From IMG/VR virus record IMGVR_UViG_2687453529_000007: a stretch of DNA of 19,211 nt; one strand, written 5' to 3'. Below, piece by piece: positions 2,690-19,211 of this stretch. Below the pieces are notes generated by a model that was not told where the DNA came from, made no database searches, and saw nothing but the letters and a program-made list of their open reading frames with translations. Position numbers and translations under genes: made by a program. The DNA is from a virus. Lineage: Duplodnaviria; Heunggongvirae; Uroviricota; Caudoviricetes. The first letter of the stretch is position 1. Each line of letters begins with the position of its first letter.

Positions 2690-3037
2690 TTACGAATTAC
2701 TGCGGCGCTGTTGCTTTTCCGCATGTACGCGTTTCACAATCTTATAAATCCATTGCAGCGTCAGATTATATTTCTTCGCTAATTCGGCGTAGTTGCGCCC
2801 ATCGCACTCGCTATAGATTTGGTAGTCACGCTCCGATGCTCGTCCGGAGATCCCCTTAGGGAAATAGATGCTTTGTCCGCCCCAGTTACGCATCATTCGG
2901 TCGGCAATGGCAAAACCCACATTTTCTGCCGATGAACTGTCGAGATTGATGCTTTCAATCAGAACTTGCGATGCATGAAAAGCCAGGTCGTTAATGATCT
3001 CCGGTGTCCGGGCCATCTCTTTTGATTTTCGTATCAT
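2690..3037 (-). CDS. Mor/C-family (phage Mu middle/late operon regulator-like) transcriptional activator, 115 aa
   Basis: C-terminal region DGRNYAELAKKYNLTLQWIYKIVKR aligns with the Mu Mor helix-turn-helix region NGRNVSELTTRYGVTFNTVYKAIRR; GGAG RBS 7 nt upstream of the ATG; divergent from the lysis/tail genes. Confidence 0.75.
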   Translation of the reverse strand: MIRKSKEMARTPEIINDLAFHASQVLIESINLDSSSAENVGFAIADRMMRNWGGQSIYFPKGISGRASERDYQIYSECDGRNYAELAKKYNLTLQWIYKIVKRVHAEKQQRRSNS

Positions 3038-3258
3038 TTTTCATCTCCATATATCTTGCATCCTGAATAAGACCCGATGCGTGTAAAACCACGGATATAC
3101 GCTAAGCAGTTGTCATTACTGCTACTCAATACATTCAATAAACAAATAAACAATCACCAAAAATATAAACTTTTAATATTAATGAACGTCATAAATTCAC
3201 GAAATAAATATATTGTTTGGATTATGTTTCTTATCAACAGGAGTATCATTTTACACTA

Positions 3259-3278
3259 TACTGTATACATATACAGTA
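3259..3278. promoter_or_regulatory. LexA (SOS) operator, near-consensus
   Basis: TACTGTATACATATACAGTA versus consensus TACTGTATATATATACAGTA (CTGT-N8-ACAG core intact, one mismatch). Lies in the AT-rich divergent region between the Mor-like gene and the lysis genes, flanked by -10/-35-like hexamers on both strands. Confidence 0.75.
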
Positions 3279-3574
3279 TTATTTTTACCTGTAGAGTAAA
3301 AAGATCGTTTCCCTCACAGTCGCTGACTTTCTTAAACAAACTTTAAAAATCAAATAACTATCGACTATTCCTACGATCCACCATCATCTTTCCCCTGCAT
3401 AATGACGCGCTTATTAGCCTGGTCACCTTTTGCTCTTTAATTGCTGAGTCGATTTATTAGCGGGCTTGTTCATTTATAGAGAATCTATTTTTTAAACTTA
3501 TTTATTAAAGCTTTTTTCATTCTTCACTGGCGGGTTCTGACGACACTAAACGCTCACTTATCAGGAGATATCGT

Positions 3575-3862
3575 ATGAAAAAAGTCACTTTTCCCCGGCT
3601 TTCCGGCTGGCTAGTCGCTTCCGCCGCGCTGTTTGTCGTGATCGGCTGGACCTCTTCCGCACAGATCCCGGTCGTCATTTATAAACTAAGCCTGGTTTCG
3701 CTTTCCGCGGTGCTGGGATACTGGCTCGATCGCAGTTTGTTCCCCTGGGCACGGCCTGACTCTTTTAGCCCCTGGAAGGAACCTCGTTGCTGCGCGGCGG
3801 CAATGATTCGCCGCGCCATCATCGTTGCCGCCGTCTGTCTTTCCGTCGCCTTAGGGCTATAG
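3575..3862 (+). CDS. Small multi-pass membrane protein, putative holin (95 aa)
   Basis: AGGAG RBS 7 nt upstream; three hydrophobic segments; stop overlaps the start region of the downstream lytic transglycosylase (TAGTGATG). Function inferred from position. Confidence 0.45.
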   Translation: MKKVTFPRLSGWLVASAALFVVIGWTSSAQIPVVIYKLSLVSLSAVLGYWLDRSLFPWARPDSFSPWKEPRCCAAAMIRRAIIVAAVCLSVALGL

Positions 3863-3864
3863 TG

Positions 3865-4470
3865 ATGTGGCTGAAATATATCGCGTCTATGATTATTTTC
3901 GTTCTTTTCCCGCTTAACGCCTCTGAACCGCCGCGAGCCTCTCTGGCATGGCGAAACGAACTAATTCGTACAGCTCGAGAAGTCTGGGGGCTGAATGCTC
4001 CAGTGGCCGACTTTGCCGGGCAATTACACCAGGAGTCCGCCTGGCAGCCAATGGTACGTTCCCCCGTTGGCGCACAAGGTATGGCGCAATTTATGCCTGC
4101 TACAGCGACATGGATAAGCCAGTTGTATCCACAATTGCGTGAAAACAAACCGTATAACCCAACCTGGGCGATTCGCGCGCTGGTGCAATATGACCAGCAT
4201 TTGTGGAAAAACATCTCTGCGAAAAATGATTGTCAGCGTATGGCGTTTACCCTAAGCGCCTATAACGGCGGTCAGGGGTGGGTTAACCGGGATAAAAAAC
4301 TGGCTGCATCCAAAGGGTTAGATGCCACTAGCTGGTTTGGTCATGTTGAGCAAGTCAACGCCGGGCGCAGCGCCACGAACTGGCGAGAAAATCGTCGCTA
4401 TCCAAAGATGATCCTCTATCAACATGCCGCCCGCTATTTACTCTGGGGACAGGCAAGCTGTCTTCATTAA
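3865..4470 (+). CDS. Phage lytic transglycosylase (SLT domain) endolysin with N-terminal signal/SAR-like hydrophobic segment
   Basis: N-terminal MWLKYIASMIIFVLFPLNA hydrophobic stretch, then SLT motifs (LHQESAWQP with catalytic Glu, GMAQFMPATA, AYNGG). The track ORF 3787-4470 begins earlier with a non-ATG codon; ATG at 3865 sits directly after the holin stop. Confidence 0.8.
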   Translation: MWLKYIASMIIFVLFPLNASEPPRASLAWRNELIRTAREVWGLNAPVADFAGQLHQESAWQPMVRSPVGAQGMAQFMPATATWISQLYPQLRENKPYNPTWAIRALVQYDQHLWKNISAKNDCQRMAFTLSAYNGGQGWVNRDKKLAASKGLDATSWFGHVEQVNAGRSATNWRENRRYPKMILYQHAARYLLWGQASCLH

Positions 4471-4482
4471 TCAGAGGGGCCG

Positions 4483-4797
4483 ATGAAACTCAGTATCGAT
4501 TTTTGGGAAGTGATCTCCCTTATGCTTTCCTTCGTTGGATTAATGTTTGCTGCCGGAAAACTGCTGTTAGCACAAATTGAAAAACGACTTAATGAGCGTT
4601 TTGAGTCTCTGGAAAATGCCCGCAGGGAATCAGAAACAAGTTGGTCGAAACTGGAAAGAGAATTTCTCGAATTTCGTGCCGAGCTTCCGCTGCATTATGT
4701 CCGCAGAGAAGATTATCTTCGTGGGCAAGCAGTATTAGAAGCGAAGCTGGATGCCTTATATAGCAAAATCGAGCTGTTACAACGTGGCAGTTATTGA
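4483..4797 (+). CDS. Lysis accessory protein, Rz/i-spanin-like (N-terminal TM helix + coiled coil), 104 aa
   Basis: N-terminal TM segment EVISLMLSFVGLMFAAGKLLLA followed by charged coiled-coil-like sequence; position after the endolysin. No convincing embedded lipoprotein (o-spanin) ORF found by eye. Confidence 0.4.
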   Translation: MKLSIDFWEVISLMLSFVGLMFAAGKLLLAQIEKRLNERFESLENARRESETSWSKLEREFLEFRAELPLHYVRREDYLRGQAVLEAKLDALYSKIELLQRGSY

Positions 4798-4802
4798 AAA
4801 AT

Positions 4803-4834
4803 CCCCACCCTTATGTAAGGGTGGGGATTTTTTT
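4803..4834 (+). terminator. Rho-independent terminator closing the lysis cassette
   Basis: CCCCACCC-TTATGTAA-GGGTGGGG stem-loop followed by ATTTTTTT; an A-run upstream makes it potentially bidirectional. Confidence 0.85.
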
Positions 4835-4941
4835 AACCATTCAATTTTTTCTCTAAATCACATTAAAAGATTCTTCACCTTCGCTGCTTCAGAATACATT
4901 TCAACGATAACGAAGTGAGCGGTAATTAAGGTACAGCCTAT

Positions 4942-5397
4942 ATGGAAATTTTATCTGTAATGAATTCTGTTGTGACCAGATTACGTGAACACAACTCCGA
5001 AATGGATATATTTATTTCATCTAAGGATGCCCAGAAATATATTCCACAGACACAACGAGTTGCAGTGATTATTAATTATAGCGGTTCTGTCTTTGCTACG
5101 CCCGAAAGCAGTAATGCCATCGTGCAACAGCAAATACTCCGCTTAACCGCCACCGTTATTGTTGGCAAAAATTGTGATGCATTAAACGCACTTGATCACA
5201 TACGCAGCGCATTGGGTGGCCTTCCGCTTCCTGATTGTGATCGTCTGCTTTGGCTTGAAAAAGAAATTAATACGGGTGAGAGCGGCGGTTTCTGCCGCTA
5301 CATCCTGGAAATGGCGACCAGCTCGCTGTTTATCGCTGAACAGGAAAGCACGGATCTTCCCCTGCTTACGGAAGTTAACTACGAGGAAACTGAATGA
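4942..5397 (+). CDS. Putative tail completion / sheath-terminator-like protein (151 aa)
   Basis: First gene after the terminator, immediately upstream of a small ORF and the sheath gene, coupled to the next ORF. Family assignment is by position only. Confidence 0.35.
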   Translation: MEILSVMNSVVTRLREHNSEMDIFISSKDAQKYIPQTQRVAVIINYSGSVFATPESSNAIVQQQILRLTATVIVGKNCDALNALDHIRSALGGLPLPDCDRLLWLEKEINTGESGGFCRYILEMATSSLFIAEQESTDLPLLTEVNYEETE

Positions 5398-5591
5398 AAT
5401 ACATCTACAACGGCCCAGCAAGCGGCGTCACCCTTGCCGATGGACAAGAAATCTTATTGTGGCCGAACAGTGAAATTGATCTGCCAGAAGACAACGAGTG
5501 GGTCATGACCATGATTGCCCGCAATCATCTGACTCCTGTCATCACTCAGGAAGAACAAAATAACGTAGAGGAAATTGTACATGGCAGCTAA
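5394..5591 (+). CDS. Small conserved phage tail-module protein (65 aa) preceding the sheath gene
   Basis: GAGGAA RBS; ATG overlaps the upstream stop (ATGA); 3' end overlaps the sheath start by 11 nt. Function unknown. Confidence 0.4.
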   Translation: MKYIYNGPASGVTLADGQEILLWPNSEIDLPEDNEWVMTMIARNHLTPVITQEEQNNVEEIVHGS

Positions 5592-7005
5592 TTATCTGCA
5601 CGGTGTAGAAACTATTGAAATTGAAACCGGCCCGCGTCCGGTTAAAGCGGTAAAATCCGCCGTCATCGCTTTAATCGGTACATCCCCCTGCGGTCCGGTA
5701 AATAAACCAACATTATGCCTTTCTGAAAGCGATGCTGCGCAGTTTGGCTCGACTCAGGCTAACTTTACGATCCCACAGGCACTGAAGGCAATTTATGACC
5801 ACGGTGCCGGTACGGTGGTGGTGATTAACGTGCTGGATCCGGCAAAACATGGCTCCAACATCAGCAATGAGAGTATCACTTTTGATGCTAACAACCAGGC
5901 GAAGCTCGCTCACCGCAATGTGCGTAACGTGGTACTAAAGCCCTCTTCATCAAATTCATCAACCTTTAACACCGCAGCATTTAGCGTAGATGAACAAACA
6001 GGCATAATTACCCGTAAAGGAGCCGACATTCCTCCTGGTGCGAAAGTTTGTGCCTATTATTCCTGGTGCGACCCTACAAAGGTCACCGCAGCCGATATTA
6101 TCGGTACCGTAAATACCGCAGGCGACCGCACGGGGATGAAACTCCTTCAGGACACCTATAACCTGTACGGTTTCTACGCCAAAATCCTGCTTGCTCCTGT
6201 GTTTTGTACGCAAAAATCGGTGACTACTGAGCTGATTGCACAAGCGGAAAAACTCGGTGCGATTACCTACATTGATGCCCCGATTGGGACAACATTCCAG
6301 CAGGTATTGGCTGGACGCGGTTCGCAAGGGGCTATCAACTTCAATACCAGCTCTGATCGTGCGCGTTTATGTTACCCACATGTCAAAGTTTACGATGGCA
6401 TCACTAACCAGGAAATTCTTGAGCCTCTCTCTTCGCGTGCTGCCGGGCTGCGTGCCAAAGTAGACCTCGAAAAAGGTTTCTGGTGGAGCAACTCAAACCA
6501 GGAAATTCAGGGTATTACCGGTATTGAACGTTCGCTTTCCGCAATGATTGATGATCCACAAAGCGAAGTGAATCAGCTCAACGAAAACGGCATTACCACT
6601 ATTTTCAATAGTTACGGCTCTGGTCTGCGCTTGTGGGGTAACCGCACAGCGGCATGGCCTACCGTGACCCATATGCGTAACTTTGAAAACGTCCGCCGGA
6701 CAGGCGATGTAATCAATGAGTCAATCCGTTATTTCAGTCAGCAGTATATTGATATGCCGATTAATCAGGCACTTATTGACGCGCTGACCGAATCGGTAAA
6801 TACCTGGGGCCGAAAACTGATTGCCGACGGCGCACTGCTTGGCTTTGAGTGCTGGTACGATCCGGCACGAAATTCACCGGCTGAACTCAGCGCCGGGCAT
6901 TTATTGCTGAGCTATAAATTCACCCCGCCACCGCCGCTGGAACGTCTGACGTTTGAAACTGAAATTACTTCTGAATATTTAGTCTCTCTGGAGAGCAATA
7001 GCTAA
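5581..7005 (+). CDS. Contractile tail sheath protein (P2 gpFI-like)
   Basis: N-terminus MAANYLHGVETIEIETG resembles P2 FI (YHHGVQVLEINEG) and the C-terminus LLSYKFTPPPPLERLTFETEITSEYL resembles P2 FI ([26 protein letters not shown]). GAGG RBS 9 nt upstream of ATG 5581; the track ORF begins at TTG 5575. Confidence 0.9.
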   Translation: MAANYLHGVETIEIETGPRPVKAVKSAVIALIGTSPCGPVNKPTLCLSESDAAQFGSTQANFTIPQALKAIYDHGAGTVVVINVLDPAKHGSNISNESITFDANNQAKLAHRNVRNVVLKPSSSNSSTFNTAAFSVDEQTGIITRKGADIPPGAKVCAYYSWCDPTKVTAADIIGTVNTAGDRTGMKLLQDTYNLYGFYAKILLAPVFCTQKSVTTELIAQAEKLGAITYIDAPIGTTFQQVLAGRGSQGAINFNTSSDRARLCYPHVKVYDGITNQEILEPLSSRAAGLRAKVDLEKGFWWSNSNQEIQGITGIERSLSAMIDDPQSEVNQLNENGITTIFNSYGSGLRLWGNRTAAWPTVTHMRNFENVRRTGDVINESIRYFSQQYIDMPINQALIDALTESVNTWGRKLIADGALLGFECWYDPARNSPAELSAGHLLLSYKFTPPPPLERLTFETEITSEYLVSLESNS

Positions 7006-7529
7006 TGGCTGGAAAAATTCAAATTAACCGTATTACCAACGCCAATATTTATCTCGATGGTAATAACCTTTTAGGTCGTGCAACAGAAATTAAATTGCCG
7101 GATGTAAGTTTAATTATGCAGGAGCATAAAGCACTGGGCATGGTGGGTAAAATCGAACTCCCGGCAGGTTTCGATAAACTGGAGGGCGAAATTAAATGGA
7201 ACTCCTTCTATCAGGACGTAATGCGTAAAACGGCAAACCCGTGGCAGGCGGTTGCATTACAGTGCCGCTCCAGTATTGATTGCTATAACTCCCAGGGGAA
7301 AGCGAATCAATTAGCGCTAGTGACACATTTAACCGTGATGTTTAAAAAGAATCCACTGGGCACATTTAAACAGAATGAAAACCCGGAATTCAGCAGCGCC
7401 TTTGGTTGCACTTATATTAAACAAGTAGTTGATGGTGAAACGCTGCTTGAACTTGATTATATGGCCAATATTTTCCGGGTTAATGGTGTGGATCAATTAA
7501 GTACCTATCGCAATAACATCGGTGGCTAA
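7005..7529 (+). CDS. Tail tube protein (P2 gpFII-like)
   Basis: Start overlaps the sheath stop; C-terminus NGVDQLSTYRNNIGG matches the P2 FII end NGVDRLEQHRRNIGL. Confidence 0.85.
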   Translation: MAGKIQINRITNANIYLDGNNLLGRATEIKLPDVSLIMQEHKALGMVGKIELPAGFDKLEGEIKWNSFYQDVMRKTANPWQAVALQCRSSIDCYNSQGKANQLALVTHLTVMFKKNPLGTFKQNENPEFSSAFGCTYIKQVVDGETLLELDYMANIFRVNGVDQLSTYRNNIGG

Positions 7530-7579
7530 GTTATTCGGGGCTACGGCCCCGAACTTTGCAAAATAAATAAGGACACAAA

Positions 7580-7897
7580 ATGAAAGAACATTATATCTTG
7601 CAGTTTCCATTTACGTCGGCAGCAGGAAATAATATCGACACGCTGCAATTACGTCGCCTGAAAGTAAAAGATATGCGCAACGCCCGCCGGATCAGCGAAA
7701 AGCCAGAAGAGTGGGATGAACCGCTGATGGCGGCGATGACCGGACTGGTGCCAGAAGATTTAGCCGAAATGGATTTGCTGGATTACCAGGCATTGCAGAA
7801 ACGATTTCAATCCATGCTTACCGTGGTTACAGAATCCTCCCCTGCTATGGCAGGCAATGGCGCTACTGGCGAGATGGTTTCGCTTTCCGCCCAGTGA
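7580..7897 (+). CDS. Tail assembly chaperone (gpE/gpG-like), short product
   Basis: Small acidic protein between tube and tape measure genes, the position of frameshifting tail chaperones. Confidence 0.6.
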   Translation: MKEHYILQFPFTSAAGNNIDTLQLRRLKVKDMRNARRISEKPEEWDEPLMAAMTGLVPEDLAEMDLLDYQALQKRFQSMLTVVTESSPAMAGNGATGEMVSLSAQ

Positions 7898-7985
7898 GAT
7901 AGACGCCCTTACCGTCGATGACTTTAGCAACTGGCTGGATGAAGCCAGCGCCCAAATAAAAATCGAATATGACTCGCAGACCTGA
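7580..7985 (+). CDS. Frameshift-extended chaperone isoform (E+E'-like), requiring a +1 shift
   Basis: A +1-frame ORF is open from 7764 to the TGA at 7983-7985 and would append ...PPSEIDALTVDDFSNWLDEASAQIKIEYDSQT. The only candidate shift motif seen is CTT_TCC at 7883-7888. Site and mechanism are not proven. Confidence 0.4.
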
Positions 7986-8086
7986 TGTCTGCGAGTTTCC
8001 CAAGCCCGTCAGGTTTATTTCTTCCCTGCCCCTTTTTTTAGAAAAATAACCAGCGGGCCATTATCAATATTTAAAGAGAAACAATT

Positions 8087-8887
8087 TTGGCCAACGATAT
8101 TATTACCCAGCTTCAGGCGCGTAATGAGACGTTGACGCAGGCAATAGCCCGTTACGGCTCACTCAACGCCAGAACATTGTTAACTCTCTCTACTCAGCAG
8201 GCGACAGTTATCAAACTAACGCAGCAGCTTGCCGATTCCGCTCTCCGCCTGGAGGAAAATAGCCGCAGCCGCGCTAATCTGATGGAGAAAACCCAAACAT
8301 TTGCCGGGCAATTTAGCAAAGTATTCAATGTTGAAGCCCCCGACTGGAAGTTGCCGTATGAGTTTCAGGACAACATGGTCAATATGGCGACCAAAGGTGG
8401 GATGAATGCTACAACCCGCGAGACGCTCAGCCTTAATCTGCGCGACTGGAGCATGGATTTTAACCAGCAGCAGACCACCTTACAGAACGCAGCCCAAACG
8501 CTGATCGAAGGCAATTTGTCGTCGATGCAGGATCTCAACCGTTATATGCCGGAGATCGCCAAAGCTGCCACCGCCACGCGCGAAAGTGCTGAAACGTGGG
8601 CGAATGCCGCGCTCGCGACTCATGATCGACTGAATATTGCCCCGGAAAATTTCCACGCCGCGCAAAACATGATGTACGGCATTAGCAAAAGCGGTGGGCC
8701 TGCCATTGCTGAACAAACGCAGTGGATAGAGAAATTTGCAGGTAAAACCGGCGCTCAGGGTCTGGAAGGTATGGCTGAACTGACTGCCGCCATGCAGATC
8801 GCAATGAAAAATGGGGCCAGCGCCAGTGCGGCGGCGGAGAATTTTGAACCACTTTCTGCAAACCACCTTTTCGAAAAAAACCGATAG
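8087..8887 (+). CDS. Tail tape measure protein, N-terminal segment (frame A); TTG start
   Basis: Helical N-terminal region typical of tape measure proteins; ends at TAG 8885-8887 while a second frame continues. In-frame stop at 8072-8074 restricts the start to the TTG at 8087 (RBS AAGAG upstream). Confidence 0.6.
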   Translation: MANDIITQLQARNETLTQAIARYGSLNARTLLTLSTQQATVIKLTQQLADSALRLEENSRSRANLMEKTQTFAGQFSKVFNVEAPDWKLPYEFQDNMVNMATKGGMNATTRETLSLNLRDWSMDFNQQQTTLQNAAQTLIEGNLSSMQDLNRYMPEIAKAATATRESAETWANAALATHDRLNIAPENFHAAQNMMYGISKSGGPAIAEQTQWIEKFAGKTGAQGLEGMAELTAAMQIAMKNGASASAAAENFEPLSANHLFEKNR

Positions 8888-10463
8888 CTGGTTCGCCAGC
8901 CAGGGCGTCGATCTGCAAGGCTCTCTGCTTGAACATCAGCAAAACGGTATGGGTGTTAGCGAAGCCATGACTCATATCGTACAAATGCAGCTTGAGAAGA
9001 TGAACCCGGCGATCCTCGACACCTTCAAACGTACTATGCAGATTGAAGATTTATCTGCTCGCAGCAATGCGCTGCAATCGATGGTGTCGCAATTTAATCT
9101 GGGCGAAATGTTCGGCGATGTGCAAACGGTGGAATTCCTGGCACCTATGCTGGCGAATATGGAGGAATATCGCCAGTTAAAAGCCTCTGCCATGCAAGCC
9201 ACCAGCAAGAATCTGATTAACGCTGACTTTTCTGCGCAAATGGCCTCGCCCATTGAACAGACTAAAGCGTTACAGCTGGCATTAAATGATTTATGGCTCA
9301 GCATTGGTTTGCAGCTTATGCCGGCGATTGGCGAGCTGGCACAAAGCCTTACGACGGTTATTCGCCAGTTCAGCGCCTGGCTACGCGAACATCCGGCGCT
9401 GGTGCAAAACATTGCGAAAATCGTCGGGGCGGTTTGGCTGTTTAACGGCGCGCTGAATGTTTTAAAGCTGGGCGCGAACCTCATCACCTCGCCGTTTATT
9501 CGTCTGGTCGATATCTTCCTGAAAGTCAAGGCAAGTCTGGCGCTCACAGGCGGGGCAAGTAAGATGCTATCAGCGGTTAAGTCATTGGGTGGCGGCGCAA
9601 AATGGCTAATGCAACTGCTTGGTCGTGGCCTGATTGGCGCACTGAAACAGGTAGGTCAGACCGTCTTCTGGTTGGGTAGGGTTTTATTGATGAATCCCAT
9701 TGGTCTGGTCATCACTGCGATTGCGGGCGCTGCTTATCTGATTTGTCGCAACTGGGAGCCTATCTCCAGGTTCTTTTCGACCATCTGGCAACGTATCACC
9801 ACGGCCTTTGACGGCGGCATTGCAGGAATTTGTCGGTTGATTCTCGACTGGTCACCGCTGGAGTTGTTCTATAGCGCCTTTTCCAGTGTGATGAATTGGT
9901 TTGGTGTCGAGATGCCTGCAAGTTTTAGCGAGTTCGGCAGCAATCTTCTGGGCAGTCTGGTTGACGGCATAATGAATGCCTTCCCCGCTCTGAAAGGCAT
10001 TATTGATCAGGTAAAAAACGCCATCCCAGACTGGCTAAAAACCACGATGGGTATTAGTACAGAAGGATCGGCTACAGCTATTACAAGCACGACTAATACC
10101 GCATCCGTCTCCCCCGCGACCGTTGTTCCAGGCGTTGCCGGTGCGATTTTAACACCGCCGGTGGGCAAACAACTCGCGCCATCCGGCAAAACGGCTACGC
10201 CGTCATCGGCGCCAGCGGCAAAAAATACAGCCGCCAAACCCGTATCTGCCTCTTTACCTGGTAAATCCGTAACCAAACCGGCGACGCTACCCTCCCGTTC
10301 CTCAGGAAAAGTCCAGGTAAATTTTTCGCCACAAATTACCGTGCAGGGTAACGGACAAAACACCACTAAAGAGATTCAGAACGTGTTGACGATGAGTAAA
10401 CGCGAACTGGAAAGAATGATTAACGATGTAATGGCGCAGCAGCAGCGCCGGGGGTATGCCTGA
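8811..10463 (+). CDS. Tail tape measure protein, main/C-terminal segment (frame B, +1 relative to frame A)
   Basis: Frame B opens after the TGA at 8805-8807 and encodes typical tape-measure content (LQTTFSKKTDSWFASQGVDLQ motif region, long hydrophobic/Gly-Ala-rich middle, Ser/Thr/Pro-rich tail). Segments together total about 790 aa. Confidence 0.65.
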   Translation: MGPAPVRRRRILNHFLQTTFSKKTDSWFASQGVDLQGSLLEHQQNGMGVSEAMTHIVQMQLEKMNPAILDTFKRTMQIEDLSARSNALQSMVSQFNLGEMFGDVQTVEFLAPMLANMEEYRQLKASAMQATSKNLINADFSAQMASPIEQTKALQLALNDLWLSIGLQLMPAIGELAQSLTTVIRQFSAWLREHPALVQNIAKIVGAVWLFNGALNVLKLGANLITSPFIRLVDIFLKVKASLALTGGASKMLSAVKSLGGGAKWLMQLLGRGLIGALKQVGQTVFWLGRVLLMNPIGLVITAIAGAAYLICRNWEPISRFFSTIWQRITTAFDGGIAGICRLILDWSPLELFYSAFSSVMNWFGVEMPASFSEFGSNLLGSLVDGIMNAFPALKGIIDQVKNAIPDWLKTTMGISTEGSATAITSTTNTASVSPATVVPGVAGAILTPPVGKQLAPSGKTATPSSAPAAKNTAAKPVSASLPGKSVTKPATLPSRSSGKVQVNFSPQITVQGNGQNTTKEIQNVLTMSKRELERMINDVMAQQQRRGYA

Positions 10464-11416
10464 TGTATGCCGTTTTAGGAGAGATTGAATTTAAGGTTGT
10501 CACATTCTGGGACGGCTTTAAAAGCACAATGGGCGTGGATTACGCCACACATGCCCGTATAGAAGGCAAACCCGGCGTGCAGTTTATTGGCGATAAGCTG
10601 GATATGCTGGCGCTGGAATTTTCCCTGCACAGCCAGTTTTGCCAGCCCACAACAGAGCTGAACCGACTGCGTGAAGCCATGCTTGCTCACAAGGCGATGG
10701 CACTGGTATTTGGCAATGGCGATTATCGCGGCTGGTTTGTGATTACGGAGCTAACCGCCACCCACCAGCACACCGATCCCTGGGGCAATGTGATTGCCCA
10801 AAACGGAACGATGTCGCTCCAGGAGTACACCGGCGATCCTAAAAATCCACTTTTACCTCCGGCGATTACCACCCAGGAGCCCAACATCGAGGAAAAGGCG
10901 AGCGATTTTCCCGACAAGGTGGAGTCCTGGTTTGATCAGATATTAAACGCCATCGAAGAAGGTATGCGTAAGGCCAAAGAGATGCTGGATGAACTGACAC
11001 AAGCCATTGAAGATATTAAAAAAACGGTGGCAAAAGTGAAAGCAATGATTAAAGAGGCCAAAGCGTTAAAAGAAAAGTGTGAAAAGATAATTACGTCATT
11101 GAAAAAGACAATCGACGCCATCGAAACCCTGTTTAAACAGCCAATGGATCTGCAAACGCTGGCAGGACTCCCAAAAGCGTTGTCGGCGCAGATTAAAACT
11201 TTACTGGGTAACATGCCAGGTATCCGGGACTGCGCCAATGACGCCAGTACACTGGTTGACCATGCTCAGGCGCTTTTCGACGACATTACCAGCGACATCG
11301 CCGAAGCGACGTTTGATAAAGCCGCAACGTTGGTTGATCAGGCACGAACAACGGTACAACAAACCACTCCCACAGTGAGCCAGCTTGCTGCCGCGACCAT
11401 TACGAGGATCTGGTGA
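10463..11416 (+). CDS. gpU-like tail protein with long C-terminal coiled-coil extension (317 aa)
   Basis: Sits between tape measure and gpX/gpD as P2 gpU does; ATG overlaps the tape measure stop (TGATG). C-terminal ~190 aa are E/K/A-rich predicted coiled coil. Assigned by synteny and weak N-terminal resemblance. Confidence 0.5.
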   Translation: MYAVLGEIEFKVVTFWDGFKSTMGVDYATHARIEGKPGVQFIGDKLDMLALEFSLHSQFCQPTTELNRLREAMLAHKAMALVFGNGDYRGWFVITELTATHQHTDPWGNVIAQNGTMSLQEYTGDPKNPLLPPAITTQEPNIEEKASDFPDKVESWFDQILNAIEEGMRKAKEMLDELTQAIEDIKKTVAKVKAMIKEAKALKEKCEKIITSLKKTIDAIETLFKQPMDLQTLAGLPKALSAQIKTLLGNMPGIRDCANDASTLVDHAQALFDDITSDIAEATFDKAATLVDQARTTVQQTTPTVSQLAAATITRIW

Positions 11417-11625
11417 TGCGATACCTTGAACATATCACCACCGACGGCGAACGCTGGGATAATCTGGCATGGCATTACTACGGTGATGCGCTGGCTTATG
11501 AACGCATAATCGCCGCCAATCCACATGTAGCCATTTACCCGGTACTGCCTTCCGGTATTCAGCTCATTATTCCGGTCATTTCCGTCAATAAAACCTTATC
11601 GGAGATCCCACCATGGCTGAGATAA
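11416..11625 (+). CDS. gpX-like small tail protein (LysM-like fold)
   Basis: Pattern L-x-x-I-x-x-x-x-ERWD-x-L-A-W-x-YYGD...AANP...LPSG matches the P2 gpX family; ATG 11416 overlaps the upstream TGA (track start 11413 is a GTG). Confidence 0.6.
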   Translation: MRYLEHITTDGERWDNLAWHYYGDALAYERIIAANPHVAIYPVLPSGIQLIIPVISVNKTLSEIPPWLR

Positions 11626-12653
11626 GCGTAACTGGTGGCGTCTTTGCCACACTCACGCCCATTTTTACCCTCTGGTATGGGCATAAAGATATCACTTATG
11701 ACATCACACCCTATGTCACCAGCATCAGTTACCACGACAGCATCAAAAACGAGTCGGATACCATCGCAATTACACTGGATGACACAGATGGACGCTGGAT
11801 AAAAGAGTGGTATCCCGGCAAAGGCGATACGCTGGCGCTGCATATGGGTTATCAGGGAGAGAAGCTGCTCGATTGTGGTCAGTATATTATTGATAAAATT
11901 GATATTTCAGCGCCACCTTCTACGGTAAATATTGATGGCATCGCCACTTCCGTCAATCAGGCGCTGCGCACCCGTAACAGCCAGGGTTTTGAAGAAACGA
12001 CGCTTTCGGCTATCGCCAGCCGTATCGCACAAACTCACGGCCTAAAGCTGGTGGGCAAAATCGAGCCTCTGACAATTGACCGGGTGACACAGTACGGCGA
12101 AACCGATGTTGGATTTCTCAAACGTCTGGCCAGTGAATATGGTTATGCCGTAAAAGTGACGACGAAAGAGCTGATTTTTTCACATTTACCCACGCTGCGC
12201 TGCCTGGCACCTGTGAAAAAGATCGACCGCAAAGACGTTTCGCATTTCACCTTCAAAGATACCATTAACCGTATCTACAAAAACGCCACCGTACAGCATC
12301 AAAATAGTAAGAAAAAAGAACTGGTTATCTACACTCACAACAGCCAGCAAAAACCGTCTGCCCGTGGAGTCGGCACCAGTGCCGACACGCTAAAACTGAA
12401 CAGTCGGGCGACGGACGTTGGCGCAGCACAGGCAAAAGCCAACGCTGCACTCGACAGCCACAACGAATATCAGCAAACCGGAACGCTCACAATGATGGGC
12501 TGCCCGGAACTGACGGCGGGCAATAAAATCGAGCTAACCGATTTTGGCGTGCTTTCCGGTCAATGGCTAATTGATAAATCGACTCACAGTTTTGTGCGCA
12601 GCGGCTATACCACTGAAATCGACGTGTCGCGCGGGCCAGCGACCAGCCAGTAA
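11613..12653 (+). CDS. gpD-like tail protein (late control D family; baseplate hub)
   Basis: Collinear similarity to P2 gpD: TLSAIASRIAQ / DVGFLKRLASEYG / C-terminal DFGVLSGQWLIDKSTHSFVRSGYTTEIDV. GGAG RBS. Confidence 0.8.
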   Translation: MAEISVTGGVFATLTPIFTLWYGHKDITYDITPYVTSISYHDSIKNESDTIAITLDDTDGRWIKEWYPGKGDTLALHMGYQGEKLLDCGQYIIDKIDISAPPSTVNIDGIATSVNQALRTRNSQGFEETTLSAIASRIAQTHGLKLVGKIEPLTIDRVTQYGETDVGFLKRLASEYGYAVKVTTKELIFSHLPTLRCLAPVKKIDRKDVSHFTFKDTINRIYKNATVQHQNSKKKELVIYTHNSQQKPSARGVGTSADTLKLNSRATDVGAAQAKANAALDSHNEYQQTGTLTMMGCPELTAGNKIELTDFGVLSGQWLIDKSTHSFVRSGYTTEIDVSRGPATSQ

Positions 12654-12662
12654 GGAGGAAAT

Positions 12663-13364
12663 ATGAAAGGAGTAACCCGTCAAACGGGGATTATCAGCGA
12701 TATTGACGAAACCAGCGTTCGGGTGCGGGTCACGCTCCCGGAGTGTGACAATCTGAAGAGCAACTGGCTTGCGGTACTTCAACGCAATTCCCAGGACAAT
12801 AAAGACTACTGGCTACCGGATATGGGCGAGCAAGTGGAAGTTCTGCTGGACAATAACGGTGAAGATGGCGTGGTGCTGGGCGCAGTTTATTCTACGGTTG
12901 ACACCGCGCCTGTAGCCTCGCGCGACAAACGTTACGTCCAGTTTTCTGATGGCGCAGCGTTTGAATATGACCGCAGCACGCACCAGCTGACGATCAACGG
13001 CGGTATCGAGAAAATCGTGATTGAGGTTATCAACGGTACCTGCCTGACATCGCCCAACGTTGAGATTAAAGCCCAACAGGTCACCGTGACTTCCGATACC
13101 GTCGATGTTAAAGCGACCGATGTCAGCATCGACGCCACTAAGGTCGAGGTTAAAGCAGCAGCAGTGACGGTAGATGCGCCCATGAGCACCTTTACTGGCA
13201 ACGTCACGGTAATGAAAAAACTCACCTGGCTTGGCGGGATGGCAGGAAGTGGAGGCATCGGTAACGCAGCCACGATAACCGGCAATGTCAACGTGATCGG
13301 CAACGTTCAGGCCAGCGGCGCATTGCAGGACAGCGGTGGCAACTCCAACCACCATTCACACTGA
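12663..13364 (+). CDS. gpV-like baseplate spike protein
   Basis: Strong RBS TAAGGAGG; MGEQVEVLLDNNGEDGVVLGAVYS and VQFSDGAAFEYDRSTHQLTINGG match P2 gpV motifs; C-terminal His-rich tip NHHSH. Confidence 0.85.
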   Translation: MKGVTRQTGIISDIDETSVRVRVTLPECDNLKSNWLAVLQRNSQDNKDYWLPDMGEQVEVLLDNNGEDGVVLGAVYSTVDTAPVASRDKRYVQFSDGAAFEYDRSTHQLTINGGIEKIVIEVINGTCLTSPNVEIKAQQVTVTSDTVDVKATDVSIDATKVEVKAAAVTVDAPMSTFTGNVTVMKKLTWLGGMAGSGGIGNAATITGNVNVIGNVQASGALQDSGGNSNHHSH

Positions 13365-13369
13365 CGTTT

Positions 13370-13399
13370 AACCCGCCTGATGGCGGGTTTTCTCTTTTT
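13370..13399 (+). terminator. Intrinsic terminator inside the tail gene cluster (between gpV-like and gpW-like genes)
   Basis: AACCCGCC-TGAT-GGCGGGTT stem-loop followed by TTCTCTTTTT. Confidence 0.7.
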
Positions 13400-13462
13400 A
13401 ATCAATCAGTTTTCTAAATCGCTTTAATATCTCCACAGCCCGTTCAGGGCGAAAATACCCTC

Positions 13463-13822
13463 ATGAACACAAAAACACGCCCCTCAACGCTGCACTGGCA
13501 ACCGGCCTTGCTGCGGCCTGAAGAATACGTCTGCGGACTGGATGATATTCACCAGGCAATACACATCATTCTGCGTACACCGCGCGGCAGTGATCCCCAC
13601 AGACCGCTGTTTGGCAGCAACTTGTGGCACTACATCGATTACCCCATCGAGCGGGCTATCCCGCATGTGGTACGGGAGTCGGTGGAAGCCATCCGCCAGT
13701 GGGAACCGCGCTGTCGGTTGCTGAAGGTGACACCAGTAATCGACGGCGAACATCTGACGTTACGTGTGCAATGGCGCGCCGCTGACGGCGTTATCAACTC
13801 AACGGAGGTGTTATGGCGATAG
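13463..13822 (+). CDS. gpW-like baseplate protein (GPW/gp25 family)
   Basis: ILRTPRGSDPHRPLFGSNLWHYIDYP and WEPR match P2 gpW (ILRTPVGSRVMRRDYGSLL...IDQP, KWEPR). Confidence 0.85.
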   Translation: MNTKTRPSTLHWQPALLRPEEYVCGLDDIHQAIHIILRTPRGSDPHRPLFGSNLWHYIDYPIERAIPHVVRESVEAIRQWEPRCRLLKVTPVIDGEHLTLRVQWRAADGVINSTEVLWR

Positions 13823-14928
13823 CCGAACCCAATTTTATTGACCGCGATCCTGCGCAAATTACCAGTGAGATGATTGCGCAATACGAAGATGCCAGTGGTA
13901 AAAAACTCTATCCGGCACAGGCTGAGCGGTTGCTCATCGACCTGTTTGCCTATCGTGAAAACCTTGTACGCATCGCCATTCAGGAAGCGGCGAAACAAAA
14001 CCTGGTCGCGTATTCCCGCGCGCCAATGCTGGATTATTTAGGAGAGCTGGTGGGCGTTCACCGTTTGCCTGCGCAGCCAGCAAAAACGACGTTGCAGTTT
14101 TCGGTCGTCAGTGCGTATACCAGCAATATCCTGATTCCCCAGGGGACGCGGGCCAGTGCCTCTGATAGCGTGATGTTCGCCACCGATGAAGATGTTCTGC
14201 TTCCGGCCTGGAGTTTGCATATCGCCGTTCCTGCCACCAGCCTCGCAGCAGGTGAACAGGGTAACGGCTGGCAGCCTGCACAAATTAGCGCTCTGGTCGA
14301 CAGGATTGGTCATTATGACATCAACGTAACCAACCTGACTGCGTCAACGGGCGGCTGCGGTGAAGAGAGCGATGACGCATTGCGCCAGCGTATCCAACTG
14401 GCACCAGAAAGCTTTAGTAATGCGGGCAGCTATGGCGCATACCGCTTTCATACGCTTTCTGTTAGCCAGTCGATTATTGACGTTGCAGTACTGGGGCCGG
14501 ACGAGGGATTGCCAGAAGGCTGCGTGGAGATCTACCCGCTAACCCTGAATGGACTGCCAGGAATAGAACTGCTCGCGCAAATCGAACAGGAGGTTAGCAA
14601 GGAGAAAAAACGTCCGCTGACCGACAAAGTGAGTGCGAAATGCGCTCTTCGAGTGCCGTATGAGATCCGTGCGCAGCTAACGCTGTTTACCACCGCCGAT
14701 CAGGAGACAACGCTGGCTGCGGCGCGTAAAGCGATTAGCCTCTGGACGCAACAGCGGCAGAAACATCTGGGGCAAGACATTGTGCCAAACCAGATAATCA
14801 AAGTGTTACAGGTCGATGGCGTCTATGACGTTGCGCTGAACTTGCCTACAAAACGTATTTTGCAGGCGCATGAATGGGCGGAATGCACTGCAATAGACGT
14901 CACGATCGCCGGAGTTAGCGATGGATAA
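13813..14928 (+). CDS. gpJ-like baseplate wedge protein
   Basis: Size, position after gpW and overlapping start (GGAGG RBS) fit the P2 gpJ / Mu gp47 family. Confidence 0.8.
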   Translation: MAIAEPNFIDRDPAQITSEMIAQYEDASGKKLYPAQAERLLIDLFAYRENLVRIAIQEAAKQNLVAYSRAPMLDYLGELVGVHRLPAQPAKTTLQFSVVSAYTSNILIPQGTRASASDSVMFATDEDVLLPAWSLHIAVPATSLAAGEQGNGWQPAQISALVDRIGHYDINVTNLTASTGGCGEESDDALRQRIQLAPESFSNAGSYGAYRFHTLSVSQSIIDVAVLGPDEGLPEGCVEIYPLTLNGLPGIELLAQIEQEVSKEKKRPLTDKVSAKCALRVPYEIRAQLTLFTTADQETTLAAARKAISLWTQQRQKHLGQDIVPNQIIKVLQVDGVYDVALNLPTKRILQAHEWAECTAIDVTIAGVSDG

Positions 14929-15637
14929 ATTGCTACCACCGCCGCCGCTTGCCAGCGATGAGCGTTTTTCGATTCTGGCAAATATCGCCGCCGAGCGTTT
15001 TGCCCAACTCGATCTGACGGCGTTGATGGTTTATCTGGTCGACCTGGTTGATGCTTCGGCATTACCAGCCCTTGCAGAACAATTTCACGTTCAGGGGTTG
15101 GAAGGTTGGTTATTTACCACCGATGAGCGGGAGAAACGCGAGTTAATTAAACAAGCCATTGAACTGCATAAATATAAAGGAACAATTTGGGCGGTGCGGC
15201 GGGTGCTGGAAATACTCTCCTTACCCGGAACTATTTCAGAATGGTTTGAATATGGGGGAAGGGCTTACTTTTTTAAGGTTGATATTACACTAGAGAAAAA
15301 AGGATTAAATGAAGATGAATTCAATGCACTTATCACATTAATTCATGAATATAAAAATGTCCGTTCAAAGCTGGAAAGCATTGTTATTTGGCTTATTAAT
15401 CGAAGCCCAATACCAGTTATTGGCAGTGCCATGCAAGGAGGGGAAGTCATTACAGTATTGCCTCCTGTTGCAGAAAGCCTCAGCCAGTCATCTGGAATAT
15501 TTTTAGCGACAGGTTATTGTGTGGAGGAATATATTCAACTACTACCTTATCAACCCGATCGACTAACACAATCCCAACCGATGAAGGTCGGCACAGGATA
15601 CTGGAGCACCGAAATTATGTCTGTATATCCGGAGTAA
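14921..15637 (+). CDS. gpI-like baseplate/tail protein
   Basis: [15 protein letters not shown] matches P2 gpI HCHKGTIGAIRRVVE; overlaps the gpJ-like stop. Confidence 0.8.
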
Positions 15638-15639
15638 TA

Positions 15640-17250
15640 ATGGCAAGTGAATTTTTTACAATATTAACTGCTGCAGGCAAAGCCAAAATTGCCTCAGCAC
15701 TGGCCGAGCAAAAACAGATCCGTCTGCAAACTATGGTAGTTGGCGACGGTAATGGTAAATATATCGAACCGACAGAAAGTCAGACCAAAGTAGTCCATGA
15801 GGTCTGGCGTGGTCAGCTCAATACATTAAAAATTGCGCCAGATAATCCGGCCTGGGTTATCGCAGAAGCGATTATTCCCGAACAAGTCGGAGGCTGGTAT
15901 GTACGCGAAGTTGGGTTACTGGATACCGACGGCACGATGGTCGCTATTGGTAAATTCCCGGAAACCTATAAGCCACGATTACCTGCGGGGGCCAGTAAGC
16001 AAATCGTTATACGCGCGGTCATGGAAGTCACCAATGCAGATGCGGTGACGCTTTTGATCGACCCTTCAGTCGTTGTGGCAACCAGGGAATATGTCGATGA
16101 CGCGTTGAAAACACATCAGCAATCACGAAATCATCCTGATGCGACGCTGACACAAAAAGGTTTTACGCAGCTGAGTAATGCGACTAATAGCGATGATGAA
16201 ACCAAAGCGGCCACGCCAAAAGCGGTAAAAACGGCATATGACCTGGCAAATAGCAAAGCTGCCACCAGTCATAATCATGCCTGGAATCAGATTACTGGTA
16301 TCCCTGATGGTACACTGACGCAGAAAGGAGTCGTTAAGCTTAACAATACAACAAATAGCACCAGTACGACGGAAGCTGCAACACCAAGTGCGGTTAAGGC
16401 AGCGATGGATAAGGCTATTGCTGCGGCACCGTCCAGCCATACCCATGCCTGGGGGCAAATAACAGGTATCCCCGACGGTACGCTGACGCAAAAAGGGGTC
16501 GTGAAACTTAATAATGCGACCAACAGCACCAGTACGACGGAAGCTGCAACGCCGAACGCTGTTAAGGCAGCGATGGATAAGGCTATTGCTGCGGAAAGCT
16601 GTCCTGTTGGGATGCCTATTCCCTGGCCATCTGATTCTGTACCTTCAGGCTACGCTCTGATGACAGGTCAGACATTTAATAAAACCTCCTATCCCAAACT
16701 GGCAATTGCATATCCATCTGGTGTTATTCCTGATATGCGCGGATGGATAATTAAAGGAAAACCATCCAGTGGGCGCGCTATATTATCTACTGAACTGGAT
16801 GGAGTTAAATCACATAACCATACGGGCAGTATTTCGAGTACGGACTTAGGGACGAAATCTGTATCATCAATAGATCTAGGAACAAAGAACACTCAGTCAT
16901 TTAATCATGGGATAAAAACAACAAATACAGCAGGCGCGCATAGCCATGATAGTGGTTCTGGCGAAAGTAGTGAGGGGGGAAAACCTCGGTATGGTACTCG
17001 TGATAACACAACAAATAATTTTGGTTCTGGTGAATCAGATCATGACAATTACAAATTTAACACATCCACGGATGGAGAGCATGCACATTCAGTTAATGTT
17101 GGCTCACACTCTCACTCTGTTATTTTAGGGTCACATAATCATTCAATTGCCCTTGGTTCCCATAATCACTCCCTAACCATTAATAATACCGGCAACACCG
17201 AAAACACCGTCAAAAATATCGCATTCAACTATATTGTGAGGCTAGCATGA
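15640..17250 (+). CDS. Tail fiber protein (P2 gpH-like N-terminus, repeat-containing shaft, His-rich C-terminal receptor-binding region), 536 aa
   Basis: N-terminus [18 protein letters not shown]...HEVWRGQLN...[20 protein letters not shown]...[14 protein letters not shown] is collinear with P2 gpH. GGAG RBS 5 nt upstream of ATG 15640; the track ORF 15517 begins upstream inside the gpI-like gene. Confidence 0.85.
16267..16602 (+). repeat. Tandem 168-bp (56-codon) direct repeat, two copies, within the tail fiber gene
   Basis: Two near-identical units encoding SH(N/T)[47 protein letters not shown], with a degenerate third copy upstream; matches the phage tail fiber repeat class. Confidence 0.8.
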
Positions 17251-17954
17251 ATACTTTTACCTTTTCCGATGAAGCTCAAATACTAACTGTATATAATTTT
17301 TCACAAGACTCCCAAGAATATATCGGTGAGTCTGATGCATACATTGCACCTAATACAGGCTTGCCAAATTATTGCACATTAATTTCACCTCCCGAAAAGG
17401 TTCCTGGTTTTACTCCAGTGTGGGAGAATGAAACATGGAGACTTATTGAAGATCATCGAGGCCAAACTGTTTATAACAAAGTTGATGGTAGCCAGCTTAT
17501 TATTCAAGAATTGGGCCAATTACCTGAAAATGTAACAGTCATTTCCCCGACAGGTTCTTTTGAACGTTGGGATGGTGAAAAATGGCAACCATCTATAACC
17601 GATGCTAAAGAGGCGAAATACTCTGCAATCAAAAATCAACGCGATGCCATCACAACCGATTACATCATCATCAACAACCATCACTTCCACAGTGATACAA
17701 ATAGCCGTATCCAACAGCTTTCACTCACAAAAATGGGAGCGGAGAAAAAAATTCCGCCAGGTTTAATGTGGAAAACTAAAAATAATGGTCTGATTGAGTT
17801 AACCAACGAAATCGCTGCCCAGTTTGAATCGGTCACCATGGATCACGATATGCGCTTGTTCGCAAACGCCCAGCGTCATATCGCGGCGGTGGAAGCACTG
17901 GACGATATTCAGGCGGTGCTCGACTACGATTATTCAACAGGCTGGCAACCATGA
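17247..17954 (+). CDS. Tail fiber assembly chaperone (Tfa / gpG family)
   Basis: N-terminal half [44 protein letters not shown]...[34 protein letters not shown] closely parallels lambda Tfa; ATGA overlap with the fiber gene stop. Confidence 0.85.
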
Positions 17955-18406
17955 GTAAAACCACTGTCTGGCTCGCTTGTTATAAGGGCCGAACAGAGCA
18001 CCGTGGTATTGCCCGACTGGCTGACTGGCTTACCCGTAAAATCACACGCGGTCATTATTCCCACTGTGAATTAGCCGTTAAGCATGGTGAAAAGAGATAC
18101 CTTTGTTACTCTGCATCACTGCGCGATCGCGGTGTACGCGGAAAGATAATGCCATTGCCAGCGGATAAGTGGGATATGCTGCCGCTCCAGGCTAGCCTTC
18201 AGGATGTGGAAACTTTTTTCCGTAAACATGATGGCAAAAAATATGACTGGCGCGGAGCATTAGGAATTATTACCGGTAATAAAGAACAGCGCGATCGCCT
18301 GTTTTGCAGTGAATTTTGTGCTGAATTTCTGCAACTGAAGGAAAGCTGGCGCTATTCTCCAAACCACTTGTACGCTTTAGTCAGCAGCTGGCAATACCAG
18401 CAATAA
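17951..18406 (+). CDS. Hypothetical protein (151 aa) coupled to the tail fiber chaperone; possible His/Cys permuted-papain-like (LRAT/NlpC-P60 superfamily) enzyme
   Basis: ATGA overlap with the Tfa stop. Contains GHYSHCELAV and, about 75 residues later, RLFCSEFCAEFL, loosely resembling the His-then-Cys motif order of permuted papain-fold proteins. The fold assignment is tentative. Confidence 0.5.
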   Translation: MSKTTVWLACYKGRTEHRGIARLADWLTRKITRGHYSHCELAVKHGEKRYLCYSASLRDRGVRGKIMPLPADKWDMLPLQASLQDVETFFRKHDGKKYDWRGALGIITGNKEQRDRLFCSEFCAEFLQLKESWRYSPNHLYALVSSWQYQQ

Positions 18407-18419
18407 ATCACGCCGGGCT

Positions 18420-19211
18420 TTATGCCCGGCACATTACCGTTTGATACAGCAAATTATCTAGCTCCCGAACATCTCCATCTCGACTGTCCGGTAAAATCGG
18501 TGGAATTTCCCCGCGCGCCAGTTCCGCGCGAATAAACGCATGCAATAAAGGACGGCGCAGTCCATATTCCGCTTCACTCGCACGCTGTTTACGCTCCAGC
18601 AATTCATCTATTTCTGCGCGTAAGGCCGCATCCAACTCACTTCCCGCCAGTAACTCGGCAAAGCGCATTGGCGGCACGCCTTTTCCCGCTTCAACCCAGC
18701 GTACGGCCAGCAGCGGGCGCAGCACGTAAAAGTATTTTTTCAGTCGAACTTCGTCGCCCTGTAAATAACCGCGAAAGTTTTTCTGCGCCATCGAATAGTA
18801 ATGCCAACGCGCGCGCAACGAAGAAAACCACATTGGGACCATTGCCTTAAGCGCCGTTATCGTTTCTTCATCTTGTTGATAGACCACCGGAGAATCCAGC
18901 CATTCTATCAGCGTCGGATTCGCGCCTTTCAATAATCCCAGCGCCTTACGCCACTCCCAACCGGAAACATCTAACTCGTCGTCGATAGGCAGTTCGATAA
19001 CATCGCGCGGTGACTCTACACGCAGATACCATTCTAGCGGATGGACATACAAAAACCGTACATCGTAGTCGCTATCGGGCGAGGCAAATCCCCAGCCGCG
19101 GCTGCCTGATTCACAGGCGTACAGCACTTTCACGCCATAGCGACGTTCTATTTCTTTTAACTGCTGCGATACCCGTTCGCGCATCGCAGCACTGACTCCA
19201 TTTAATGGCAT
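18420..19211 (-). CDS. Pol-beta-superfamily nucleotidyltransferase-like protein (263 aa), convergent with the tail operon
   Basis: N-terminal motif ESGSRGWGFASPDSDYDVRF matches the G[SG]-x9-13-D-x-D nucleotidyltransferase signature, followed by a helical C-terminal domain; start codon is at the window edge (19209-19211). Confidence 0.55.
   Translation of the reverse strand: MPLNGVSAAMRERVSQQLKEIERRYGVKVLYACESGSRGWGFASPDSDYDVRFLYVHPLEWYLRVESPRDVIELPIDDELDVSGWEWRKALGLLKGANPTLIEWLDSPVVYQQDEETITALKAMVPMWFSSLRARWHYYSMAQKNFRGYLQGDEVRLKKYFYVLRPLLAVRWVEAGKGVPPMRFAELLAGSELDAALRAEIDELLERKQRASEAEYGLRRPLLHAFIRAELARGEIPPILPDSRDGDVRELDNLLYQTVMCRA

Follow-up and report, generated by a model that had tools for sequence, protein, structure and literature searches.

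An RlaP-family nucleotidyltransferase of the Escherichia coli accessory genome, encoded in a slipin-rlaP operon beside a phage-tail gene cluster, with a probable role in RNA repair

Background

SPFH/Band-7 modules, ‘a novel tRNA-like molecule’, and the RlaP nucleotidyltransferase were reportedly described by Burroughs & Aravind in 2016 as components of RNA-repair systems. Two Pseudomonas enzymes, PfRlaP and PaRlaP, were studied by Carruthers, Fatma & Huang (bioRxiv 10.64898/2025.12.29.696909); both add one to two NMPs (or dNMPs) to the 3′-OH of RNA, not to DNA or protein, and favour Mn2+ as well as mimics of cleaved or damaged tRNA. When RlaP was applied before ligation, aminoacylation of a tRNA short of one nucleotide was partly restored. 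The authors treat the in vivo role of RlaP as still a proposal and state that its 3′-OH product is incompatible with RtcB (all bioRxiv 10.64898/2025.12.29.696909). The second system of relevance is the rsr-yrlBA-rtcBA operon of Salmonella, which is controlled by RtcR and sigma-54 (Hughes et al. 2020, PMC7790460); tRNA fragments activate RtcR (PMC7790460).

Proteins of the same Pfam family as RlaP are also known from phages and Bacillus, i.e., NrdC.11 of phage T4, YcgL of B. subtilis, and proteins of Pseudomonas jumbo phages. These belong to other sequence clusters (bioRxiv 10.64898/2025.12.29.696909) and stand in another genomic context; the jumbo-phage proteins align with the RlaP described below over 88–98% of the length at only 44–45% identity.

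Identification of the 263-aa protein as RlaP

The window, i.e., the whole stretch of 19,211 nucleotides that was analysed, ends with an open reading frame on the minus strand (Table 1), the stop codon of which occupies positions 18420–18422 and the ATG start of which is the very last triplet. An in-frame alternative ATG is located 9 nt further upstream (21319–21321 of locus L006, past the window end), where it shares bases with the stop codon of the slipin gene (ATGA) and would extend the protein by Met-Ser-Gln; the annotated ATG was preferred because of the N-termini of the orthologues and the spacing of the AGGA Shine-Dalgarno sequence. Searches against Pfam gave PF10127 (RlaP, ‘RNA repair pathway DNA polymerase beta family’) as the sole assignment of the 263-aa protein, with an E-value of 3.9e-96 and 322 bits (cut-off 23), the match spanning residues 10–256 and profile positions 1–248 of 249. 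Because of this end-to-end match, the reading frame is a real gene and no chance ORF.

The protein is a full-length RlaP with an intact catalytic signature. An earlier, sequence-only reading of the window had pointed out a Pol-beta-type GS...D-x-D motif, and this motif is present as G36-S37 and D48-x-D50, with D81 as an additional acidic residue; all five positions are invariant among 12 orthologues from 10 genera (alignment A1). The same reading had placed the gene convergently to the tail operon at a distance of 13 bp, which is exactly the arrangement found (Table 1). PF10127 and the three-Asp Pol-beta core are shared with PfRlaP and PaRlaP, and the orthologues from Pseudomonas rtc operons (taken from the 80 loci described below and not PfRlaP or PaRlaP themselves) are 56–58% identical over the full length. 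No NCBIfam model matched the protein, and a sequence search of the PDB with RlaP found no relative. Members of the family are expected to have an N-terminal NTase domain and a C-terminal helical domain, the last helix of which is packed back on the NTase domain; AlphaFold2, run from a shallow alignment of 12 sequences, returned a mean pLDDT of 58, with values below 50 for the NTase domain, i.e., too low to support a fold assignment.

Table 1 Positions of the features at the right end of the window
Feature	Position	Strand	Basis and remarks
Last tail-cluster gene, 151 aa	17951–18406	+	ORF call; PHROG 1128; not part of the slipin-rlaP unit
13-bp gap between tail cluster and slipin-rlaP unit	18407–18419		Right boundary of the tail cluster; alignment A2
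G+C-rich terminator-like hairpin	18409–18433		Terminator scan and alignment
rlaP coding sequence	18420–19211	−	263 aa; PF10127 Pol-beta-superfamily RNA nucleotidyltransferase; ORF call and Pfam
NTase-domain catalytic core of RlaP	18969–19106	−	Read from sequence; alignment A1
G36-S37 of RlaP	19101–19106	−	Pol-beta signature
D48-Y49-D50 (DxD) of RlaP	19062–19070	−	Pol-beta signature
D81, third acidic residue of RlaP	18969–18971	−	Pol-beta signature

Slipin partner, promoter, and leader RNA

In every E. coli locus examined, a slipin gene (375 aa, SPFH/Band-7; Pfam Band_7, E-value 9.7e-27) stops 5 nt upstream of rlaP on the same strand; the two genes form a chromosomal operon, slipin-rlaP, with rlaP in the distal position and the promoter-proximal part just outside the window. 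The sequence-only reading had expected any partner genes beyond the window, and it is indeed past position 19211 that the slipin gene and a predicted structured leader RNA follow.

About 315 nt upstream of slipin (locus L006), a sigma-54-type −24/−12 element, TGGCACacttTTCGCA, was predicted from sequence; it aligns with the known sigma-54 promoter of rtcBA in K-12 and has TCGC at −12 instead of TTGC. An RtcR binding site upstream of slipin could not be defined. A perfect tRNA T-arm, GGGTTCGATTCCC, is located at about −186 upstream of slipin in E. coli. In L006, promoter and leader occupy about 22610–22760 on the minus strand, just past the window end. Both elements recur upstream of slipin, the sigma-54 element as TGGCAC-N5-TCGC and the T-loop as GGTTCGA[AT]TCC; the T-loop motif was found in 30 of the 42 loci checked (in some of them twice) and the sigma-54 element, for which a stricter pattern was applied, in 24 of the 42.

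Directly upstream of slipin in Betaproteobacteria and Pseudomonas, one or two tRNA-like genes with odd, aberrant, or undefined anticodons were detected by ARAGORN and the Rfam tRNA model. A fold computed from a single leader sequence gave no information (z = −1.0). Neither Rfam (E ≤ 1) nor ARAGORN found anything in the region upstream of slipin in E. coli, the element of the Enterobacterales being too divergent for both tools. Therefore, the case for a leader RNA is based on motif conservation, the tRNA calls in other taxa, and covariation: the Enterobacterales leader aligns well and yields a consensus structure of 20 pairs, nine of which show compensatory changes. These data point to a conserved, covarying, structured leader RNA with a tRNA T-arm that precedes slipin.

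Distribution in E. coli

A protein identical to RlaP is encoded on many E. coli chromosomes, and the slipin-rlaP pair was found in 1629 of 5426 complete E. coli genomes (~30%). The gene order at this site is yjbD, slipin and rlaP, either the tail cluster or a zeta-toxin-family gene, and lysC; on the E. coli chromosomes examined, yjbD, rluF, the sorbose operon, and pepE are located beyond slipin. The tail-cluster junction stands next to rlaP in only 195 of the 1629 genomes, whereas the zeta-toxin-family gene takes the place of the tail cluster, convergent with rlaP, in the other 1434. The slipin-rlaP pair thus occurs independently of the tail cluster. In about 70% of E. coli the site is empty, e.g., in K-12, where yjbD and lysC are adjacent.

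The zeta-toxin-family gene encodes a solitary P-loop kinase of 308 aa (6039–6965 in L007, 6035–6961 in L009), and no epsilon-type antitoxin is annotated beside it. It was considered as a functional partner of RlaP and rejected, as the 80 loci from outside E. coli contain no homologue and the gene is missing from the window.

Gene order in other genera

Orthologous loci were collected by a scan of one genome per species, which yielded 80 loci from Gamma- and Betaproteobacteria with proteins of 53–94% identity. Neighbouring ORFs were clustered and cluster representatives were checked against Pfam, whereby RtcR, RtcB, RtcA, a HEAT-repeat protein, and a treble-clef zinc-finger protein were identified as neighbours. 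In many of the 80 loci, RtcB is encoded immediately upstream and/or RtcA downstream of rlaP, with RtcR divergent. Exact RtcB and RtcA counts are withheld for Betaproteobacteria because simple ORF calling yielded false antisense ORFs in loci of high GC content (cluster c4).

Pseudomonas and some Betaproteobacteria have rtcR followed by slipin, (zinc-finger gene), rtcB, (HEAT-repeat gene), rlaP, and rtcA. This agrees with the published position of the P. aeruginosa RlaP gene between rtcB and rtcA (bioRxiv 10.64898/2025.12.29.696909) and with the SPFH protein PaFlo8 embedded in the rtc locus of that species (PMC13086221). The Pseudomonas operons resemble the E. coli unit in having a slipin gene and tRNA-like elements and differ in the position of rlaP, which lies between rtcB and rtcA with a divergent rtcR in Pseudomonas and has only slipin upstream in E. 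coli. In Phytobacter, Kosakonia, and Franconibacter, rtcR is followed by slipin, rtcB, and rlaP and then by lysC and pgi, i.e., at the same chromosomal site as in E. coli. A form with rtcR, slipin, and rlaP and without rtcB is present in Citrobacter, Klebsiella oxytoca, Superficieibacter, Mangrovibacter, Brenneria, and Lonsdalea, and lysC follows rlaP in the ligase-less loci of Citrobacter, K. oxytoca, and Superficieibacter. E. coli retains slipin and rlaP only, its ligase-less module being without an RtcR of its own. In E. ruysiae (5698–6000 of L010), rlaP stands alone beside yjbD, an internal deletion having taken the leader and nearly all of slipin; this deletion reduces the operon still further. 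It fuses the beginning of the leader with the final ~60 nt of slipin, and the −24 element there is degenerate (TGGCCT).

Proposed role in RNA repair

In all likelihood, the gene at the end of the window is an accessory-genome orthologue of RlaP in E. coli that is distal in a slipin-rlaP operon, has a role in RNA repair, and forms the host-side flank of the tail cluster. The family is a known one (PF10127), and the present case is one more RlaP within a reduced Rtc-type RNA-repair unit. The gene, which RefSeq lists merely as ‘nucleotidyltransferase domain-containing protein’, can accordingly be named RlaP and placed in such a unit, carried by ~30% of E. coli.

By analogy with the Pseudomonas enzymes, RlaP of E. 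coli would add one or two NMPs in a Mn2+-dependent manner to the 3′-OH of damaged RNA, e.g., nicked or trimmed tRNA, and this addition would let ligation restore a functional molecule. As no RNA ligase, cyclase, or RtcR gene adjoins rlaP in the E. coli unit, a repair role requires partners in trans. The canonical rtcB-rtcR region was detected in 5424 of the 5426 complete E. coli genomes, so that regulator and ligase are on hand in trans; RtcR would supply sigma-54 activation and RtcB ligation, and we infer that both act on the slipin-rlaP unit. The unit is probably a satellite of the canonical rtcR-rtcBA locus, because E. coli lost the cis-encoded rtcR and rtcB at this site.

The slipin-rlaP unit and the Salmonella operon are built on the same logic: each combines a sigma-54 promoter with a non-coding RNA that contains a tRNA-like domain, a protein for RNA binding or scaffolding, and enzymes for RNA end healing and sealing. 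The components differ: slipin stands for Ro (Rsr), another leader RNA for YrlA and YrlB, and RlaP takes the place of RtcA, and the E. coli unit is without RtcB and RtcR. Slipin and the tRNA-like leader may thus form a scaffold comparable to that of Ro and Y RNA in Salmonella, a view adopted because SPFH proteins and a tRNA-like RNA have reportedly been described together in RNA repair (see Background).

A more far-reaching version is possible rather than likely: leader, slipin, and rlaP could be a self-standing, selected unit, i.e., an orphan sigma-54 operon tied in trans into the RtcR/RtcB regulon, in which slipin and leader present damaged tRNAs or decoy anticodon nucleases and RlaP rebuilds trimmed 3′ ends. 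If so, the carriers, ~30% of strains, would be resistant to nucleotide-excising ribotoxins. E. coli offers a genetically tractable host for studies of the in vivo role of RlaP, of the role of the accompanying SPFH protein and tRNA-like leader, and of the possible control of an orphan sigma-54 operon by RtcR in trans.

Selection and allele divergence

Given the reduced state of the operon, rlaP might be regarded as a relic without function, left by the decay of a second rtc operon and heading for loss. The stepwise reduction fits this, from the full operon in Phytobacter and Kosakonia via loss of rtcB in Citrobacter and K. oxytoca and the additional loss of rtcR in E. coli to the deletion of leader and slipin in E. 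ruysiae, as does the empty site in K-12 and most other E. coli. Such a fate is nevertheless improbable, since slipin and rlaP are both under strong purifying selection: among E. coli alleles, which differ by up to 10% in DNA, dN/dS was 0.04–0.08 for rlaP and 0.05–0.08 for slipin, although the synonymous divergence of rlaP is very high (dS 0.25–0.49 for the window versus L007, L008, and L009). Furthermore, rlaP is essentially full-length in 1627 of the 1629 carrier genomes, none of its catalytic residues varies, E. coli has conserved both promoter and leader, and the ligase-less form with rtcR, slipin, and rlaP recurs in several genera. Low dN/dS, invariant residues, the kept promoter and leader, and the recurring ligase-less form all argue against a dead relic.

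The synonymous divergence of slipin was 0.03 between the window-type allele and CE10 and 0.16–0.18 against zeta-type alleles, and the contrast in dS between slipin and rlaP differs by pair. CE10 carries the tail cluster together with another rlaP allele, i.e., the allele type does not follow the tail cluster. This pattern suggests that alleles at the variable junction have recombined or been imported.

Comparison with defence and toxin systems

MenT and AbiEii toxins are enzymes with a Pol-beta fold, which extend the 3′ ends of RNA (tRNA) by a few nucleotides. The sequence-only reading had drawn attention to standalone nucleotidyltransferases of toxin-antitoxin and anti-phage systems at prophage ends, and in this sense the protein could be a MenT/AbiEii-, MNT-HEPN-, or CD-NTase-like enzyme that blocks translation upon infection via addition to tRNA 3′ ends. 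The addition of one to two nucleotides to the RNA 3′-OH by the RlaP family formally equals the chemistry of MenT, the variable slot between rlaP and lysC holds a zeta-toxin-family gene or the tail cluster, and RNA-repair systems are, broadly speaking, conflict systems. MenT and AbiEii, however, belong to other Pfam and PADLOC families, which RlaP does not match, and RlaP has no cognate antitoxin and stands in a repair context. In searches against PADLOC-DB v2 (E ≤ 0.1), nothing was found for RlaP, slipin, or the 151-aa protein of the adjacent tail cluster, and Pfam gave PF10127 alone for RlaP. No HEPN, antitoxin, toxin, or sensor partner is present at the locus, and the orthologues are encoded beside RtcB, RtcA, and RtcR in RtcR-controlled RNA-repair operons, at a fixed chromosomal site across genera. 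A defence or toxin function is thus very improbable, and this lead of the sequence-only reading was dropped in favour of RNA repair.

Junction with the tail cluster

The tail cluster (2690–18406) comprises genes for a Mor activator, holin, SLT, sheath, tube, tape measure, baseplate, fibre, and fibre assembly as well as the 151-aa gene, and it extends up to lysC. No head, terminase, or integrase genes are located between lysC and rlaP. The 151-aa gene overlaps the tail-fibre-assembly gene by 4 nt; its product matched PHROG 1128 (‘enoyl-CoA hydratase/carnithine racemase-like’, moron category) at an E-value of 2.7e-58 and had no Pfam match.

At the right end of the cluster, the hairpin takes up most of the gap and covers the rlaP stop as well as the last four codons of rlaP. 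According to the terminator scan on the minus strand, i.e., the rlaP strand, it has 10 pairs, seven of which are G-C, with the core arms GCCGGGC and GCCCGGC inside the 10-pair stem. Tail-type and zeta-type genomes have both conserved it, and it is here that their homology starts: in alignment A2, the sequences left of ~18408 are unrelated and those right of ~18408 are common to both types. As the common sequence begins at the terminator hairpin, RlaP marks the host-side boundary; rlaP and its terminator are the host-side flank, and the tail cluster stops at about 18407–18410, where its right boundary can now be fixed. The alternative that the sequence-only reading had left open, i.e., a host gene that marks the right boundary, is the supported one: ~1430 complete E. 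coli genomes without the tail cluster have rlaP at the same site between lysC and yjbD, and in Citrobacter, Klebsiella, Kosakonia, Franconibacter, and others the gene is the immediate neighbour of lysC. Whereas the position of the gene is thus maintained without the tail locus, RlaP is a family of stress response and repair and not strictly a housekeeping one.

The tail cluster is located at the same site beside rlaP in Phytobacter massiliensis (L011) and Superficieibacter (L012), where homologues of the 151-aa protein are 79–80% identical and the baseplate J protein (gpJ) is 89% identical. Since the cluster abuts rlaP in these two loci as well, it is an old resident of the site, and it may be an old, domesticated tailocin-like locus. 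Its presence there does not make rlaP a part of it; rlaP lies outside the tail cluster.

That rlaP is a moron, carried as cargo by the tail cluster or prophage remnant and gained and lost with it, is hardly credible: the full-length match to PHROG 14344 (E-value 2.8e-120), the fact that the right end of the cluster never occurs without rlaP in E. coli (same 1629 records), the shared junction in P. massiliensis and Superficieibacter, and the RlaP-family proteins of phages (T4 NrdC.11, bioRxiv 10.64898/2025.12.29.696909; Pseudomonas jumbo phages) would fit, but most other genera and ~1430 E. coli genomes have slipin-rlaP and no tail cluster, genomes with and without the cluster are homologous from the hairpin beyond the rlaP stop onwards, rlaP is operonic and co-oriented with slipin and convergent to the tail genes, and the best match in 50,697 real phage genomes, from Pseudomonas jumbo phages, reaches only 44–45% identity, so that PHROG 14344 probably derives from over-extended prophage calls. 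The distribution largely refutes this explanation.

Left end of the window

Bases 1–1511 are 99.9% identical to an IS903B transposase and a fragment of a TonB-dependent receptor, which are found on many E. coli plasmids and chromosomes. A start of the window inside an intact lysC was considered and rejected, as Pfam and BLAST show the IS903B and TonB-receptor fragment there. The lysC ORF (1490–2635; 381 aa, AA_kinase and ACT) is 5′-truncated, with the first ~70 codons missing, and the arrangement resembles the insertion of a mobile (resistance-type) transposition unit into lysC.
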